From Planctomycetota bacterium (GTDB taxonomy: Bacteria > Planctomycetota > MHYJ01 > JACPRB01): a DNA stretch of 64,000 bases. The stretch covers positions 27,219-91,218 of the forward strand of contig DATLZA010000102.1 in the NCBI GenBank assembly GCA_035574235.1, read 5' to 3'. The notes under the pieces were generated by a model. It saw only the letters and a program-made list of their open reading frames with translations. It searched no databases and had not been told where the DNA came from. Positions 9,347 through 35,895 of this stretch are shown piece by piece (the first letter of the stretch is position 1; each line of letters opens with the position of its first letter). Made by a program: the position numbers and the translations under genes.

Positions 9347-9538
9347 TCAGGGCCGCTCGAATTCCAGGCCGCAGCGCCGGCACAGGTGCCGCGGCGGCCG
9401 CCCGCGCTCGGCCGGGGGACGCGCCGTGACGAAGCCCTGGAATCGGCACATGGGACAGCGTCCGGAGTCCGGCGCGGCCGGAGGCTCTGAAGGCCAGGGA
9501 AGAATGGTCCGGGCGGGGCGCACGCCGCGGCGCCTCAC
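9347..9538 (-). CDS. small Zn-ribbon protein (CxxC...CxxC)
   Basis: 63 aa with CPMCRF and CRRCG pairs; start overlaps the upstream gene stop by 4 nt (translational coupling). Confidence 0.35.
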   Translation of the reverse strand: MRRRGVRPARTILPWPSEPPAAPDSGRCPMCRFQGFVTARPPAERGRPPRHLCRRCGLEFERP

Positions 9539-10158
9539 CGCAGGAGCTCCGAAAGGATTTCGCGCACGCCGCCGGGATCCACCTGGACGGCCACGCGGCG
9601 CAGGCGTCGCGCGGGATCGGTTTCGACGGTCCGGACGTCTCCGGCCAGGAGGCGGCCGGCGACGCGCGCGCGGACGTGTCGGGGGGCTCCCTCGAAGTGC
9701 CGGTGAAACTCGTCGGATTCTCCCGCCAGGACGAGCGTCTCGGGCGAAAGCTCCGCGAGCCGGCAGGCGATCGTGAGGCCCTCGCCCGCCTCGAGCTCCA
9801 CGGGGAGCTTCCGCACGCGCTCCTGGCGGAGGCGCTCGAGCCGCCGGAACGTGTCGGCGAGCTTGAGCGGAGAAAGCGGCGCGGGCAGGACCGCCGCCAC
9901 CTGGCCCGCCGCGGGGACGGCCACGGGCACGCCGGCCAGGACCACGGGCACGCCGGGCATCTCCTGTTCGAGAAAGCGCGCCAGGGTCTCGGGCGCTCCG
10001 GCGGGTCCGAAGACGACCGCGTCAAAGAGCGCGGTGCGGAGTTTGAGCGCCGCGTCGTCGGCGTCGGCGGCCAGCGACACGCGGTGGCCGAGCGAGCGAA
10101 GCAGCGCGCGCACGAGATGCGCCACGGAGGCGGGCGCGTCGTAGACGAGAACGTTCAT
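9535..10158 (-). CDS. pseudo-receiver (REC-like lacking phospho-Asp) / PilZ-like domain protein
   Basis: Start MNVLVYD at 10158 with GGGAGG Shine-Dalgarno. The N-terminus is CheY-like but has G at the phosphoacceptor position (FDAVVFG). C-terminus carries RQERVR and ELSPETL motifs reminiscent of PilZ (RxxxR / DxSxxG); this is weak. Confidence 0.45.
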   Translation of the reverse strand: MNVLVYDAPASVAHLVRALLRSLGHRVSLAADADDAALKLRTALFDAVVFGPAGAPETLARFLEQEMPGVPVVLAGVPVAVPAAGQVAAVLPAPLSPLKLADTFRRLERLRQERVRKLPVELEAGEGLTIACRLAELSPETLVLAGESDEFHRHFEGAPRHVRARVAGRLLAGDVRTVETDPARRLRRVAVQVDPGGVREILSELLR

Positions 10159-10354
10159 GCGACCTCCCGGGAAGGGACGCGGCGTCCGCAGACTATATCG
10201 GCGCGGAGGGCGGCGGGCTTGAGCGCCGGCCGCATGAGTGTTAAGAATGCACAATCCATGGGGGCGTCCCGCCGGGAGCCCACAATCGGCGGGGGCCCCT
10301 GCGGGCCGCCCTGTCGCCGGCGTGCGGGACGCCGGAGGGGGCCTGCGTTTTCGC

Positions 10355-10382
10355 TTGACTGGCCCTTCGGGCGGGATAAACT
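10355..10382 (+). promoter_or_regulatory. sigma70-like promoter TTGACT-N16-TAAACT upstream of mraZ
   Basis: cTTGACTggcccttcgggcgggaTAAACTaattcg. Confidence 0.35.
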
Positions 10383-10390
10383 AATTCGTG

Positions 10391-10415
10391 ACGGCTGACG
10401 CGCTCAGCCGTTTTT
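10391..10415 (+). terminator. intrinsic-terminator-like hairpin in mraZ leader (8-bp stem ACGGCTGA/TCAGCCGT, loop CGCGC, then TTTTT)
   Basis: acggctgaCGCGCtcagccgtttttctctc; oriented to act on + strand transcripts. Confidence 0.4.
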
Positions 10416-10427
10416 CTCTCCGCCCCG

Positions 10428-10468
10428 GTGGGGAAAAGTGGGGGGAAAGTAGGGAGGAGTGGAAGGTA
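10428..10468 (+). promoter_or_regulatory. GTGGG direct-repeat array (4 repeats, 10-11 nt periodicity) abutting the mraZ start: candidate MraZ operator
   Basis: GTGGGGaaaaGTGGGGGGaaaGTAGGGaggaGTGGAAGG; MraZ is known to bind direct repeats of (G)TGGG upstream of mraZ. Confidence 0.4.
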
Positions 10469-10481
10469 ATCCCTGGGTCCT

Positions 10482-10946
10482 ATGTTCGCCGGCGAATTCC
10501 GACACGCGATCGACGAGAAGAATCGCCTCGTCATTCCGGCGAAATTCAGGGCCTTTCTGAACGATCCCGAGGATCGCAAGGGGTTTTTCGTGATGGCCAG
10601 CCCGGTGCCGGGGGAGCACTGCCTGCGGCTCTACACGATGAGCGGGTGGAAGAAGGTGGTCGACAATCTCCGCAAGCAGGCCGACCGGGCCAAGGATCCG
10701 GCCAAGTTTCTGAGGTTCTTCGCCTCGCGGGGGGAGTTTTCCACGCTGGACGGGCAGAGCCGGCTGGTGATTCCGCAGAAGCTGCTCGACTACGCGGGGC
10801 TTCAGAGGGACGTGATCCTGGTGGGCAACTACGACTGGATCGAAGTCTGGAACGTCGAGGAATATCAGGCGGCGACGGAAAGTCTGGACGAGGAGATCGC
10901 CGACCGCAGCCGGGCGCTGTGGCCGGGTCCGGGCGGTCCGGCCTGA
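10482..10946 (+). CDS. mraZ: division/cell wall cluster transcriptional regulator MraZ
   Basis: MFAGEFRHAIDEKNRLVIPAKFR... with two SpoVT/AbrB-like halves (second: DGQSRLVIPQKLLDYAGL). Confidence 0.9.
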   Translation: MFAGEFRHAIDEKNRLVIPAKFRAFLNDPEDRKGFFVMASPVPGEHCLRLYTMSGWKKVVDNLRKQADRAKDPAKFLRFFASRGEFSTLDGQSRLVIPQKLLDYAGLQRDVILVGNYDWIEVWNVEEYQAATESLDEEIADRSRALWPGPGGPA

Positions 10947-10986: not shown

Positions 10987-11244
10987 ATGGAGGCAGAGGA
11001 AGGGAAGGACTCGTTCGAGATCGTCCGCGACTTCCTTCTGAGCCTGGGCGAGCGCAAGCCCGGGAGGGACGAGGTGCAGGCGATCGCGCCGGCGCTGCGG
11101 GACATTTACGAGCGCCTGATGAGGGTGCGGGCCGTGGCGCCGTCGGTGGACCTGAGCGACCGGCTGTGGGAGCTCATGGAGATGGTGGGGCTCAAGGCGC
11201 GGCCGGCGCGACGGACGGCGTTCTTTCGGGCCGCGAGCCTGTAG
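10987..11244 (+). CDS. hypothetical small protein
   Basis: 85 aa, preceded by GAGAGGGGGAAGG Shine-Dalgarno-like motif; sits between mraZ and rsmH; non-biased composition. Confidence 0.35.
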   Translation: MEAEEGKDSFEIVRDFLLSLGERKPGRDEVQAIAPALRDIYERLMRVRAVAPSVDLSDRLWELMEMVGLKARPARRTAFFRAASL

Positions 11245-11343: not shown

Positions 11344-12231
11344 TTGCCTCGCCGGGTCGCCGCCGTGCACGAACCTGTTCTTTCGGATGAGGTGATCGGG
11401 CTCCTGCGGATCCGCCCGGGCGGACTGTACGTGGACGCCACGCTCGGTCTGGGCGGACACGCGGAGCGGATCGTGGCGCTCGGGGGGCGCGTCCTCGGCA
11501 TCGAGTGGGATGACGAGGCCGCGGCGCGCGCGGCGGAGCGGCTGGGGCCGGCCGCCGAAGTCGTTCGCGACTCGTTCGCGAACCTCCCGTCGATCCTTGA
11601 AAGTCGGAACGTGAGCGTCGTCGACGGCATCCTGGCCGATCTGGGCGTGTCGTCGTTGCAGTTGGACACCGCTTCGAGGGGGTTCAGCTTCCTCCGGGAA
11701 GGTCCTCTGGACATGCGCATGTCGCCGCGGATCCGGAGGACGGCGGCGGACCTGCTCCGGGAGCTTGGAGAGAGGGACCTGGAGCGGATCCTGCGGGAGT
11801 ACGGCGAGGAGCCGCGCGCCCGCCGAATCGCGGCCGCCCTGGTGCAGGAGAGGGGGAAACCGGGGAGCGACATCCTGGCATCGACCCGGGCGCTGGGGGA
11901 GTTCGTGGCGCGCCTGACCCGCCGGCGCGGACGAATTCATCCGGCGACCCGGGTCTTCCAGGCCCTCCGGATCGCCGTCAACGACGAGCTGGAAAACCTC
12001 AAGAAGTTCCTGGCGGTTTTCGATAAGTATCTGGGAGCCGGGGCGCGGTGCTGCGTGATCGCGTTCCACTCCCTGGAGGACCGCCTGGTGAAGCGGGCCT
12101 TCCGCGAGAAGGAGAAGGAAGGGCTGCGGATCGTCACCCGCAAGCCCCTCCGGCCCTCGCGCGAGGAGGTCCGGCGCAACCCGCGCGCCCGGAGCGCGCG
12201 GCTGCGCGCGATCGAGCGGCCCGGAGCGTGA
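11344..12231 (+). CDS. rsmH: 16S rRNA (cytosine1402-N4)-methyltransferase
   Basis: HEPVLSDEVIGLL, DATLGLGGH, DLGVSSLQLD, RIAVNDEL motifs. The start is TTG 11344 or GTG 11365. Confidence 0.85.
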   Translation: MPRRVAAVHEPVLSDEVIGLLRIRPGGLYVDATLGLGGHAERIVALGGRVLGIEWDDEAAARAAERLGPAAEVVRDSFANLPSILESRNVSVVDGILADLGVSSLQLDTASRGFSFLREGPLDMRMSPRIRRTAADLLRELGERDLERILREYGEEPRARRIAAALVQERGKPGSDILASTRALGEFVARLTRRRGRIHPATRVFQALRIAVNDELENLKKFLAVFDKYLGAGARCCVIAFHSLEDRLVKRAFREKEKEGLRIVTRKPLRPSREEVRRNPRARSARLRAIERPGA

Positions 12232-17578: not shown

Positions 17579-18652
17579 ATGCTGCTTTGGCTTTTGGGCG
17601 AGGACTTCCGGGAAGGGATCACCCTGCGGGCGGCGATGGCGGGGATCACCGCGTTCGCGGCCTGCCTGGCGCTCGGGCCGCGCGTGATCGCCTGGCTGCG
17701 GGCCCGCAAGGTCGGGGAGCGGGTCGAAAAGGACGACTCGCGGCGGCTCGACGAGCTCATGCGGCAGAAGAAGGGGACGCCCACGATGGGCGGGGTTTTC
17801 ATCGTGGCGGCGATCCTCCTGAGCGTGGTTCTCTTCGGCAACTTCGCGAATCCCGCGCTCTGGGTCCTGGCGCTGGTTCTTGTGGGCCTGGGGGCGGTGG
17901 GGGCGGCGGACGACTACCTGAAGCTTTCCGGCCGGTCGCGCACGGGAATGCGGATGCGGACGAAGCTTCTGCTGCAGGTGGCCGTGAGCCTGGCGGCGGG
18001 ACTCGGTCTGGCGGGCGCGCTGCGGGCGACGGATCCCCAGACGGCGACGAAGCTTTTCACGCCCTTCGGGATCTCGTGGGACCTCGGGGTCTTCTATCCG
18101 GCGTTCGTGGCGCTGGTGCTCGTGGCCACGACGAACGCCGTCAACATCACCGACGGGCTGGACGGCCTGGCGGGAGGGTGTCTGGGGATCTCCACCTTCG
18201 CGTACGCGGTGATCGCGTACATCGTGGGGCGCGTGGACTTCAGCGCGTACCTGGAGCTTCCGTACGTCAAGGCGAGCGCGGAGCTGCCGGTGTTCTGCAC
18301 TGCGATGCTCGGCGCGGTCCTGGGATTCCTCTGGTTCAACAGCCACCCCGCGCAGGTGTTCATGGGAGATTCGGGGTCCCTGCCTCTGGGGGGCGCGCTC
18401 GGGCTGGTGGCGTGCGCGACCAAGCAGGAGCTGCTGCTCTTCCTCGTGGGCGGGGTCTTCGTGATCGAAGCCTTCTCCTCGCTGCTTCAGATCCTGAGCT
18501 ACAAGGCGACCGGACGGCGGATTTTCCTCATCGCGCCGCTCCACCACCATTTCCAGTTCCGGGGCCTTCCGGAGACGAAGATCACGCTGCGCTTCTGGAT
18601 CGTGGCGGCGGTGATGGCGGTCTCCAGCCTGGCCCTTCTCAAGATCCGATGA
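17579..18652 (+). CDS. mraY: phospho-N-acetylmuramoyl-pentapeptide-transferase
   Basis: Ten-TM pattern, KKGTPTMGG, NAVNITDGLDGLA, PAQVFMGDSGS motifs. Confidence 0.92.
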   Translation: MLLWLLGEDFREGITLRAAMAGITAFAACLALGPRVIAWLRARKVGERVEKDDSRRLDELMRQKKGTPTMGGVFIVAAILLSVVLFGNFANPALWVLALVLVGLGAVGAADDYLKLSGRSRTGMRMRTKLLLQVAVSLAAGLGLAGALRATDPQTATKLFTPFGISWDLGVFYPAFVALVLVATTNAVNITDGLDGLAGGCLGISTFAYAVIAYIVGRVDFSAYLELPYVKASAELPVFCTAMLGAVLGFLWFNSHPAQVFMGDSGSLPLGGALGLVACATKQELLLFLVGGVFVIEAFSSLLQILSYKATGRRIFLIAPLHHHFQFRGLPETKITLRFWIVAAVMAVSSLALLKIR

Positions 18653-18784
18653 AACGCTGGGAGCTCGTCCTGGCCGTGGTCCTCCTGGGCCTGGCGGAGG
18701 CGCTGGGCCGGGCGCGCCGCCGGCTGATTCGGTTTCTGACCCCGCGCCGGCCGTAGGCGCGCCCCGGGCCCCCTCGCCAATTTC

Positions 18785-18812
18785 TTGACGCTTCGCCGGA
18801 GGAGCCTAGAAT
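18785..18812 (+). promoter_or_regulatory. sigma70-like promoter TTGACG-N16-TAGAAT for mdh
   Basis: ttcTTGACGcttcgccggaggagccTAGAATcggg; 30-nt leader with AAGGAGA Shine-Dalgarno. Confidence 0.4.
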
Positions 18813-18842
18813 CGGGCGCACCCTGCTCAAGGAGAACGCGCC

Positions 18843-19778
18843 ATGCCCCGTCCGATCGTCGGCGTCGTCGGCGCCGGAAACGTCGGCGCTTCCGCGGCCC
18901 TCATGATGCTCAAGAAGGATCTCTGCGACGTGATCCTGTGCGATATCCCCCAGGTGGAGGGCATGCCCCAGGGCAAAGCCCTCGACATGTCCGAATCGCG
19001 CCAGGTGGATTACCACGACGCCAAGGCGTGGGGCACCACGCGGGTCGAGGATCTCAAGGACTGCTCGATCGTCTGCATCACCGCGGGCGTTCCCCGCAAA
19101 CCCGGGATGACCCGCGAGCAGCTCCTCGAGGTCAACGCGAACATCATCCGGGACGTGACCGGAAAGCTCAAGGCGGCCGGCGCCCGCCCGATTCTCATCG
19201 TCGTGACGAACCCCCTCGACGTCATGACCTACGCCGCGATCCGCCTGACGGGGTTTCCGCGCGAGCGGGTCCTGGGCATGGCCGGCGTTCTGGATTCCAA
19301 CCGGTTCGCGCATTTCGTGGCCGAGGAGCTCAAGGTCTCCCCGAAGGACATCTCCGCGATGGTCCTGGGCTCCCACGGCGACACGATGGTGGCGATGCCG
19401 CGCTTCACGACGGTCGCCGGCATTCCCATCACGGAACTCCTTCCGAAGGAGCGGATCGACGCGCTGGCGCAGAGGACCCGCGACGGCGGGATCGAGATCG
19501 TGAACCTCCTCAAGACCGGGAGCGCCTACTACGCCCCGGGCAGCTCCATCGTCGCGATGGTCGAAGCGATCCTCCACGACTCCCATCGGGTGCTCCCGTG
19601 CTCGGTGCTCCTCAAGGGCGAGTACGGGCTGGACGACGTCGTGGTCGGGGTTCCATGCAAGATCGGGGAAGGCGGGCTGAAGCAGATCCTCGAGGTTCGC
19701 CTGACGCCCGAGGAGGACGCCGCCCTCAAGCGCTCCGCGGCCGTCGTCAAGGAAAACATCCGGGCGCTCAAGTTCTGA
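18843..19778 (+). CDS. mdh: malate dehydrogenase (LDH-like MDH)
   Basis: VGVVGAGNVGAS Rossmann, substrate-binding R and catalytic H region, overall LDH/MDH family. Confidence 0.9.
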   Translation: MPRPIVGVVGAGNVGASAALMMLKKDLCDVILCDIPQVEGMPQGKALDMSESRQVDYHDAKAWGTTRVEDLKDCSIVCITAGVPRKPGMTREQLLEVNANIIRDVTGKLKAAGARPILIVVTNPLDVMTYAAIRLTGFPRERVLGMAGVLDSNRFAHFVAEELKVSPKDISAMVLGSHGDTMVAMPRFTTVAGIPITELLPKERIDALAQRTRDGGIEIVNLLKTGSAYYAPGSSIVAMVEAILHDSHRVLPCSVLLKGEYGLDDVVVGVPCKIGEGGLKQILEVRLTPEEDAALKRSAAVVKENIRALKF

Positions 19779-35723: not shown

Positions 35724-35752
35724 TTGAAAGACCGCCTCGTGGGCCCTATACT
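35724..35752 (+). promoter_or_regulatory. sigma70-like promoter TTGAAA-N17-TATACT driving the korAB leader
   Basis: ctcTTGAAAgaccgcctcgtgggcccTATACTtacc. Confidence 0.45.
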
Positions 35753-35826
35753 TACCACAGCCGCCGCCGGTTCGGGCGGCTCGGCGACGGGCGGGGAGGG
35801 GTAGGTCCTCACGCCCCGGGAGAACG

Positions 35827-35895
35827 ATGAGCATTCGGTCACGATCGGCGCCCCGTTCGAACGGGGCTTTTTTTGTAGCTGAGGAAGAACGATGA
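35827..35895 (+). CDS. candidate leader peptide uORF (22 codons) overlapping the korA start (ATGA) and spanning the terminator hairpin
   Basis: GGGAGA Shine-Dalgarno 5 nt upstream; encodes MSIRSRSAPRSNGAFFVAEEER. Confidence 0.3.
   Translation: MSIRSRSAPRSNGAFFVAEEER
35850..35874 (+). terminator. intrinsic terminator/attenuator hairpin (GCCCCGT-tcga-ACGGGGC) followed by T7, 18 nt upstream of korA
   Basis: ggcGCCCCGTTCGAACGGGGCtttttttgtag. Confidence 0.55.

Follow-up and report, generated by a model that had tools for sequence, protein, structure and literature searches.

In the DNA analyzed here, the mraZ gene is preceded by a promoter, a GC-rich stem-loop with an adjoining U-rich tract and an array of four putative MraZ boxes, in that order, and 32 distinct leaders of related, uncultured Planctomycetota showed the same layout. 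Judging from the comparison of these sequences, we consider that the stem-loop and the U-tract, together referred to as the module, would act as a promoter-proximal intrinsic terminator or attenuator, with or without coupling to MraZ, and we give this reading a probability of about 0.45. The DNA is a 64-kb fragment of a 69% GC genome (the window, 64,000 nucleotides), and all positions are those of this stretch.

The mraZ locus

The mraZ gene (positions 10482 to 10946, + strand) encodes a protein of 154 amino acids that matched Pfam family PF02381 (E = 8.5e-23). A total of 130 MraZ homologues showed identities of 61 to 96%, the closest proteins (61 to 96%) coming from uncultured Planctomycetota MAGs and from soil metagenomes. 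Both DXXXR motifs were retained (D11-R15 and D90-R94), and residues D11, K13, N14 and R15, together with D90, Q92 and R94, were invariant among the 29 MraZ sequences aligned.

The gene heads a dcw operon. It is followed by an open reading frame (ORF) of 85 amino acids (10987 to 11244, + strand), by rsmH/mraW (11344 to 12231, + strand) and then by an ftsL-like ORF, ftsI, a Mur ligase gene and mraY, up to position 18652. The 85-amino-acid ORF gave no match in a Pfam search. A tblastn search found it at 55 to 96% identity in all 51 related loci covering it, and it is annotated in relatives as a gene of some 85 to 90 amino acids; it appears to be an uncharacterized, clade-specific member of the dcw operon. 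The dcw-type cluster seems to end at mraY (stop at 18652). The next gene encodes a malate/lactate dehydrogenase (18843 to 19778, + strand) with a promoter-like sequence of its own, TTGACG-N16-TAGAAT (18785 to 18812), and no ftsW, murG, ftsA or ftsZ was found directly after mraY (17579 to 19778).

On the other side, mraZ shares an intergenic region of 323 bp with a divergent gene (9535 to 10158, − strand) whose 207-amino-acid product had no Pfam match and no recognizable DNA-binding domain. Synteny of this gene with mraZ held in all related loci, at identities of 46 to 87%, including those of lineages in which the hairpin is missing, and a functional link with the dcw operon is possible.

A conserved promoter directly precedes the hairpin

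The promoter given in the preliminary description, TTGACT-N16-TAAACT, was found at 10355 to 10382 on the + strand, with its −35 hexamer at 10355 to 10360 and its −10 hexamer at 10377 to 10382, separated by a 16-nt spacer. It was the sole sigma-70-like site between 9500 and 11500, where 0.1 would be expected, and the same scan gave no promoter downstream of the hairpin. Among 23 aligned relatives, the TTG of the −35 element was invariant and the TAnnnT of the −10 element was at least 90% conserved, many relatives having the extended −10 sequence TGnTAGTCT. Similarly, TTGNNN followed by a spacer of 16 to 17 nt was present in all 33 loci examined, while the spacer sequence itself varied. Fixed TTG and TAnnnT elements around a spacer of variable sequence are the signature of a genuine promoter.

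From the geometry of this promoter, transcription is predicted to start at 10388 to 10390 (+ strand), 6 to 8 nt past the −10 hexamer, giving mraZ a predicted untranslated region (UTR) of about 92 nt. In approximately 30 of the 32 leaders, the first paired base of the stem lay 6 to 9 nt from the −10 element. We infer that the RNA opens with the hairpin, with 0 to 2 unpaired nucleotides ahead of it.

The hairpin and the U-tract

The stem-loop occupies positions 10390 to 10412 (+ strand). Its arms, GACGGCTGA (10390 to 10398) and TCAGCCGTT (10404 to 10412), form eight Watson-Crick pairs plus one G.U pair around the 5-nt loop CGCGC. Five of the nine pairs are G-C, and the stem falls within the 5 to 14 bp that define an intrinsic terminator. 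The folding energy was −13.7 kcal/mol (z = −3.3 against shuffled sequences). The U-rich tract TTTTTCTCT (10411 to 10419, + strand) abuts the stem, within the 0 to 2 nt allowed for terminators, and consists of a run of five T residues (10411 to 10415) and then CTCT. Thus, the GC hairpin with T5 that had been proposed for this region is present, as a 9-bp stem starting at 10390 with the T5 run extending through 10415. The motif occurs as a single copy in the window.

The full leader folded unremarkably (z = −1.27), and only the hairpin stood out. A search of the leader for an antiterminator yielded no consensus alternative fold. Since the hairpin starts at about +1, there can be no upstream antiterminator RNA, so that a protein (or a roadblock) would have to mediate any regulation. 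Searches against Rfam gave no match anywhere in the window at the gathering threshold and, at E values up to 10 on positions 10100 to 10560, chance matches to miRNA and lncRNA families only; no tRNA or tmRNA genes were found.

Single-sequence folds also contained a second hairpin, in which the U-tract or pyrimidine run pairs with the A-rich spacer of boxes 1 and 2. This candidate was dropped: RNAalifold did not return it, it had no two-sided changes, its register shifted between lineages and it was not evident in leaders L054 and L055 either.

Putative MraZ boxes and translation start

Four GTGGG-type repeats with spacings of 10 to 11 nt had been reported directly ahead of mraZ, and they are indeed there, at 10428, 10438, 10449 and 10459. 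The putative boxes, all on the + strand, are box 1, GTGGGG (10428 to 10433), which aligned with box 1 of the relatives; box 2, GTGGGG (10438 to 10443), and box 3, GTAGGG (10449 to 10454), both supported by pattern match and alignment; and box 4, GTGGAAGG (10459 to 10466), with the core GTGGAA at 10459. The spacing of the four is thus 10, 11 and 10 nt. The pattern GTGGG-N5-6-GTGGG-N5-6-GTRGR had one match in 64 kb and none in 100 shuffles. The array sits directly upstream of mraZ, at the head of the dcw operon (rsmH, ftsI, the Mur ligase gene and mraY downstream). Box 1 lies about 39 to 40 nt past the predicted start, and the boxes span about +40 to +78, overlapping neither the promoter nor the predicted start in the window.

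Two details of the preliminary description needed correction. The array was said to abut the ATG of mraZ; it does lie just upstream of the gene, but a gap of 15 nt separates it from the ATG. Likewise, the overlap with a Shine-Dalgarno-like element is real, but the element overlapped, by box 4, is GGAAGG (10461 to 10466) and not GGAGG. The GGAGG at 10453 to 10457 is 24 nt from the ATG and therefore too distant for a Shine-Dalgarno role.

In relatives, the position of box 4 is occupied by GTAGAAGG, 8 nt before a GTG start. As a side observation, mraZ starts in most of them at a GTG 8 nt past GAAGG; the window has an in-frame CTG (10473 to 10475) at the position of this GTG, and the ATG follows 9 nt further on. 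The succession of CTG and ATG was common to the closest relatives (CTG GAC CCT ATG in L010 and CTG CAA ACC ATG in L011).

The boxes of the relatives followed a strict 10-nt period. Most relatives have five boxes against four in the window, which shows an alignment gap of about 10 nt. From the T-run to box 1 there are 10 nt in most relatives and 12 in the window, the sequence of this spacer being variable. An additional "box 0" after the T-run is unlikely, the sequences at that place (GTCCG, GTCGG, GGACG, etc.) mostly lacking the GTG core contacted by MraZ.

Conservation of the module

Related loci were retrieved through MraZ and comprised 8 genome loci, 40 metagenome loci and 5 more divergent loci. 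The comparison with related mraZ upstream regions that had been suggested earlier showed promoter, hairpin plus T-run and boxes to be a conserved, ordered unit. A chance origin of the layout is excluded by this conservation. A covariance model found the hairpin in 32 distinct leaders with scores of 36 to 98 bits, and the 7-bp core of the stem was paired in 32 of 32. The module of the relatives typically reads CGGCTGA...TCAGCCG followed by a T-run, mostly CT6G, with hairpin energies ranging from −10 to −28 kcal/mol. At least five T residues (range, 5 to 7) were present within 8 nt past the stem in every lineage bearing the module except L005. In L054, the hairpin and a T7 run are situated about 18 nt after the −10 element and hence away from the extreme 5' end.

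The stem sequence itself was highly conserved. Two-sided changes were observed at three pairs (GC to CG in L003, UA to CG in L031 and AU to UA in L001), a number that just 3 of 500 column shuffles attained, in an alignment that was fitted to the model and so leans towards structure, and with each compensatory change represented by one sequence. These changes give modest support to the idea that compensatory change maintains the hairpin. Counts of covariation from MAFFT alone were too low, L003 being misaligned by one column, a fault corrected by the model-based alignment.

Variation at the apex was more informative. Most leaders have a loop of 4 to 5 nt, while in L001, L005, L014 and L015 an insertion of 10 nt gives a longer stem, of 13 to 16 bp, and L055 carries a 22-nt insertion that folds as a nested hairpin. 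In addition, U.G wobbles were seen on the + strand of three leaders; in an RNA from the opposite strand these pairs would be C.A mismatches. The variable apical spacing and the wobbles therefore favor an RNA hairpin of the + strand over a DNA operator for a dimeric protein, and this apical variation is, in our view, stronger evidence for an RNA structure than the compensatory pairs. Related loci had the hairpin in one copy each, in every case ahead of mraZ; a dispersed repeat or REP-like element was discarded, no second copy being found in the window or in approximately 200 kb of related DNA.

Gain and loss of the module

Hairpin and T-run were both gone or decayed in L006 and in L007, L029 and L032, whose 5' folding z scores ranged from +1.1 to −2.3, with no U-tract. 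The basal leaders L050/L051 and L052 have no module, and their boxes lie about 13 to 14 nt after the −10 element, an arrangement that, from its sequence, is that of a classical MraZ operator. A rough neighbor-joining tree of MraZ, a weak one built from 150 residues, suggested that the module was gained once, then lost twice and, in one further case, lost in part. The hairpin and the U-tract thus seem to behave as a single unit, kept or lost together, with the exception of L005, and since several lineages do without it, the module is dispensable. Because the basal relatives lack the module and have promoter-adjacent boxes, the module would have moved the operator to about +40; it resembles an insertion, specific to this clade, that shifted a classical MraZ operator from the transcription start to this position.

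Other elements of the intergenic region and of the window

A strict terminator scan (stem of 7 bp or more, including 4 or more G-C pairs, and a T-run; both strands, 64 kb) gave two sites in the window, the mraZ hairpin and one at 35850 to 35867. A looser scan gave no excess over shuffled sequences. Thus, canonical terminators are rare in the window, and both strong ones are situated in 5' leaders. The other promoters predicted in the window have short, unstructured leaders.

The second site, GCCCCGT-TCGA-ACGGGGC plus T7 (35850 to 35874, + strand), belongs to the leader (35724 to 35875) of a pyruvate/2-oxoacid:ferredoxin oxidoreductase gene, whose ATG (35892) follows 16 nt downstream; the promoter-like sequence CTTGAAA-N17-TATACT lies about 95 nt upstream of the site. 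An upstream copy of GCCCCG (35811 to 35816) could compete for the 3' arm of this hairpin. The sole Rfam match of the leader was anti-hemB, below threshold (17 bits, E = 0.08). The leader is a candidate attenuator, riboswitch-like element or small RNA.

Upstream of the mraZ promoter, a conserved block reads GTTAAGAATGCACAATCCATGGGGG in the window (10240 to 10264) and ATATTAAGAAAACACCATATATGGGGGG in most relatives, where it sits about 230 to 260 nt upstream of mraZ and often includes a short palindrome, e.g., CCACAATATGTTGTGG in L006. This block may act as an operator or else as the promoter for the divergent 207-amino-acid gene. Relatives such as L016 and L001 also have a small hairpin about 60 to 110 nt upstream of the −35 element, with a loop that starts with GTAG and arms that covary (ACATGT/ACATGT, CCGG/CCGG and GCGTAT/ATATGC). 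A conserved CTGTGGGC comes after this hairpin and, in L001, L005, L014 and L015, two GTGG boxes 10 nt apart come next. The window has CTGTCGCC (10311 to 10318) at this place, the box having been lost. These upstream GTGG boxes of the relatives may be extra MraZ boxes. RNAalifold gave no consensus structure for the upstream intergenic blocks on either strand (0.0 kcal/mol).

Alternative explanations for the module

Some of the evidence would also suit a 5'-terminal stabilizing stem-loop, protecting the dcw mRNA from decay by RppH, RNase E or RNase J with little or no termination, in which case the U-tract would be incidental or would serve another purpose. The placement of the stem at the extreme 5' end, 6 to 9 nt past the −10 element in about 30 of 32 leaders and even in those with apical insertions, is something that a stabilizer needs and a terminator does not. 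L005, which retains a 16-bp hairpin without a T-run, likewise speaks against termination, and the outgroups L007 and L029 carry a different 5'-proximal stem-loop lacking a U-tract (z of about −2.1 to −2.3). However, outside L005 the T-run always adjoins the stem, and this in a genome of 69% GC; L054 keeps the hairpin and T7 about 18 nt from the −10 element, where they are not 5' terminal; L006 and L032 lack significant 5' structure; and stabilizing structures are not a feature of the other promoters predicted in the window, with their short, unstructured leaders. On balance, stabilization as the function of the stem-loop is doubtful, though quite conceivable, and it is the strongest competitor of the terminator reading.

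A role of the same sequence as DNA is improbable. The palindrome CGGCTGA-N5-TCAGCCG could be bound at +1 to +23 by a second, dimeric transcription factor, with the T-tract as an A-tract-like spacer phased with the MraZ boxes. The conservation of the half-sites does exceed what the structure needs, in most lineages the end of the T-run is exactly 10 bp (one helical turn) from box 1, and a gene of unknown function, divergent and syntenic, lies across the same intergenic region. Yet the protein encoded by that gene has no recognizable DNA-binding domain, and the palindrome had no other copy, either in the 64-kb window or across the related loci (about 200 kb). Moreover, the spacing of the half-sites varies (about 4, 5, 6, 14 to 15 and 22 or more nucleotides), with inserts that extend the stem or nest within it, and the U.G wobbles and compensatory changes do not fit an operator. 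Similarly improbable is that the hairpin terminates + strand transcription arriving from further upstream, so as to end an unannotated intergenic RNA or to insulate the dcw operon, TTGACT/TAAACT then lying inside that transcript. An intergenic region of 320 to 600 bp with conserved blocks and a covarying small hairpin ahead of the promoter leaves room for such an RNA, and the UpsM promoter of Rhodobacter is more than 200 nt ahead of its terminator (PMC5089854). Nevertheless, the only promoter-like site with comparative support directly precedes the hairpin, the upstream region yielded neither a consensus structure on either strand with RNAalifold nor a match in Rfam, and the upstream gene is divergent, so that there is no read-through to stop.

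A model for termination at the mraZ leader

If the module is a terminator, the conserved sigma-70-type promoter would transcribe the mraZ-dcw operon into an RNA that begins, within 0 to 2 nt, with a GC-rich stem-loop and a U-tract, the shape of an intrinsic terminator. Transcription would then cross the four MraZ boxes, the last of which overlaps the ribosome-binding site. A fraction of the polymerases would be released after about 25 to 31 nt, and with a terminated product of this size a trans-acting small RNA is unlikely. The joint retention or loss of hairpin and U-tract agrees with the autoregulated attenuation, or small terminated RNA, proposed in the preliminary description, and UpsM is a precedent for it (PMC5089854).

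The position of the boxes bears on how MraZ might take part. An open complex covers roughly to +20, and the boxes lie at +38 and beyond; MraZ would thus be unable to occlude the promoter. An elongating RNA polymerase needs about 13 to 15 bp of downstream duplex. In head-on collisions, 26 to 31 bp separate the active sites of two polymerases (PMC13082048). With such a need for downstream duplex, and box 1 only 12 bp past the U-run, a polymerase on the U-tract (10411 to 10419) would already touch MraZ bound at box 1 (10428). MraZ could then block or slow elongation at the terminator and increase termination, instead of occluding the promoter. In this form, MraZ and the terminator would make up a single device, in which bound MraZ holds the polymerase on a leaky terminator and termination is enforced by the protein, a device that would have evolved by insertion of the terminator module into a classical MraZ operator. 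Such coupling is favored by the expectation that slowing the polymerase at a terminator should raise termination, but as a complete scheme we regard it as rather unlikely. The geometry is only approximate, and a tight block by MraZ at box 1 might stall the polymerase a few nucleotides before the release point.

Discussion

MraZ is among the most conserved bacterial regulators, and, to our knowledge, its control of the division and cell wall operon is known only for operators that overlap the promoter. Cell division in Planctomycetota is unusual and poorly understood. Here, an operator appears to have been displaced by some 40 nt downstream through an RNA element with the shape of a terminator, conserved in dozens of uncultured Planctomycetota, and in this soil lineage the usual autoregulation by MraZ is probably complemented by early termination of transcription at the module. 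If the module does terminate, termination in a dcw leader would have arisen independently of UpsM in Rhodobacter, and the leader would offer a simple natural system for the cooperation of a DNA-bound protein with an intrinsic terminator. If it only stabilizes the mRNA, it would be an ordinary leader feature.

MraZ boxes have been described as GTG[G/T] repeats separated by spacers of 6 nt, three in most bacteria and four in Mycoplasma; their GTG is read by MraZ residues Lys13, Arg15 and Arg86, and in Mycoplasma genitalium the transcription start lies inside box 1 (PMC12957436). Bacillus subtilis has three GTGG[A/T]G repeats, which are needed for repression (bioRxiv 10.1101/2022.02.09.479790). 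The array described here resembles the operators of Escherichia coli, B. subtilis and Mycoplasma in its GTG[G/T] repeats, its 10-bp period, its location before mraZ and the two DXXXR motifs of the cognate protein, and by analogy autoregulation by MraZ is expected at the boxes of the window. The earlier attribution of the known MraZ operator architecture to this leader thus holds for the box motif, the period and the DXXXR motifs, but not for the position, box 1 being at about +40 rather than overlapping the promoter. Whereas other MraZ operators have three boxes (four in Mycoplasma), there are four here and five in most relatives, and these lie at about +40 to +78 and are transcribed. Also unlike the known operators, a terminator-like module separates the boxes from the promoter, and the last box overlaps the ribosome-binding site.

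As for termination, we know of one terminator described in an mraZ leader, that of UpsM. Rhodobacter sphaeroides has a Rho-independent terminator in the 5' UTR of mraZ, where read-through amounts to about 1% (PMC5089854), and UpsM is a 206-nt small RNA, dependent on Hfq and RNase E, from a UTR of 268 nt, restricted to the Rhodobacteraceae (PMC5089854; PMC8266604). By analogy, it is the closest precedent for the leader of the window: in both cases a terminator, predicted here, stands between the mraZ promoter and mraZ, and the Rhodobacter dcw operon relies on read-through. The differences are nevertheless considerable, as here the product would be only about 25 to 31 nt long, the predicted UTR is about 92 nt, the hairpin would start at +1, the MraZ boxes come after the putative terminator, and neither the sequence nor Rfam links the element to UpsM.

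Two further systems are relevant. Stabilizing 5'-terminal stem-loops of the ompA type need no U-tract. The module shares with them a stable stem-loop 0 to 2 nt from the predicted 5' end of a long mRNA, but differs in that a T-run is nearly always attached and in that the module of L054 is not 5' terminal. Repressors such as CodY, CcpA, PurR and the lac repressor act as elongation roadblocks from sites downstream of promoters. The MraZ boxes are similar in lying well past the transcription start, beyond the footprint of the open complex, although we know of no natural case in which a roadblock site is placed about 10 bp past the U-tract of an intrinsic terminator. An MraZ operator and a leader terminator are each known in kind; here the operator is combined with a probable terminator and differs in its position relative to the promoter.
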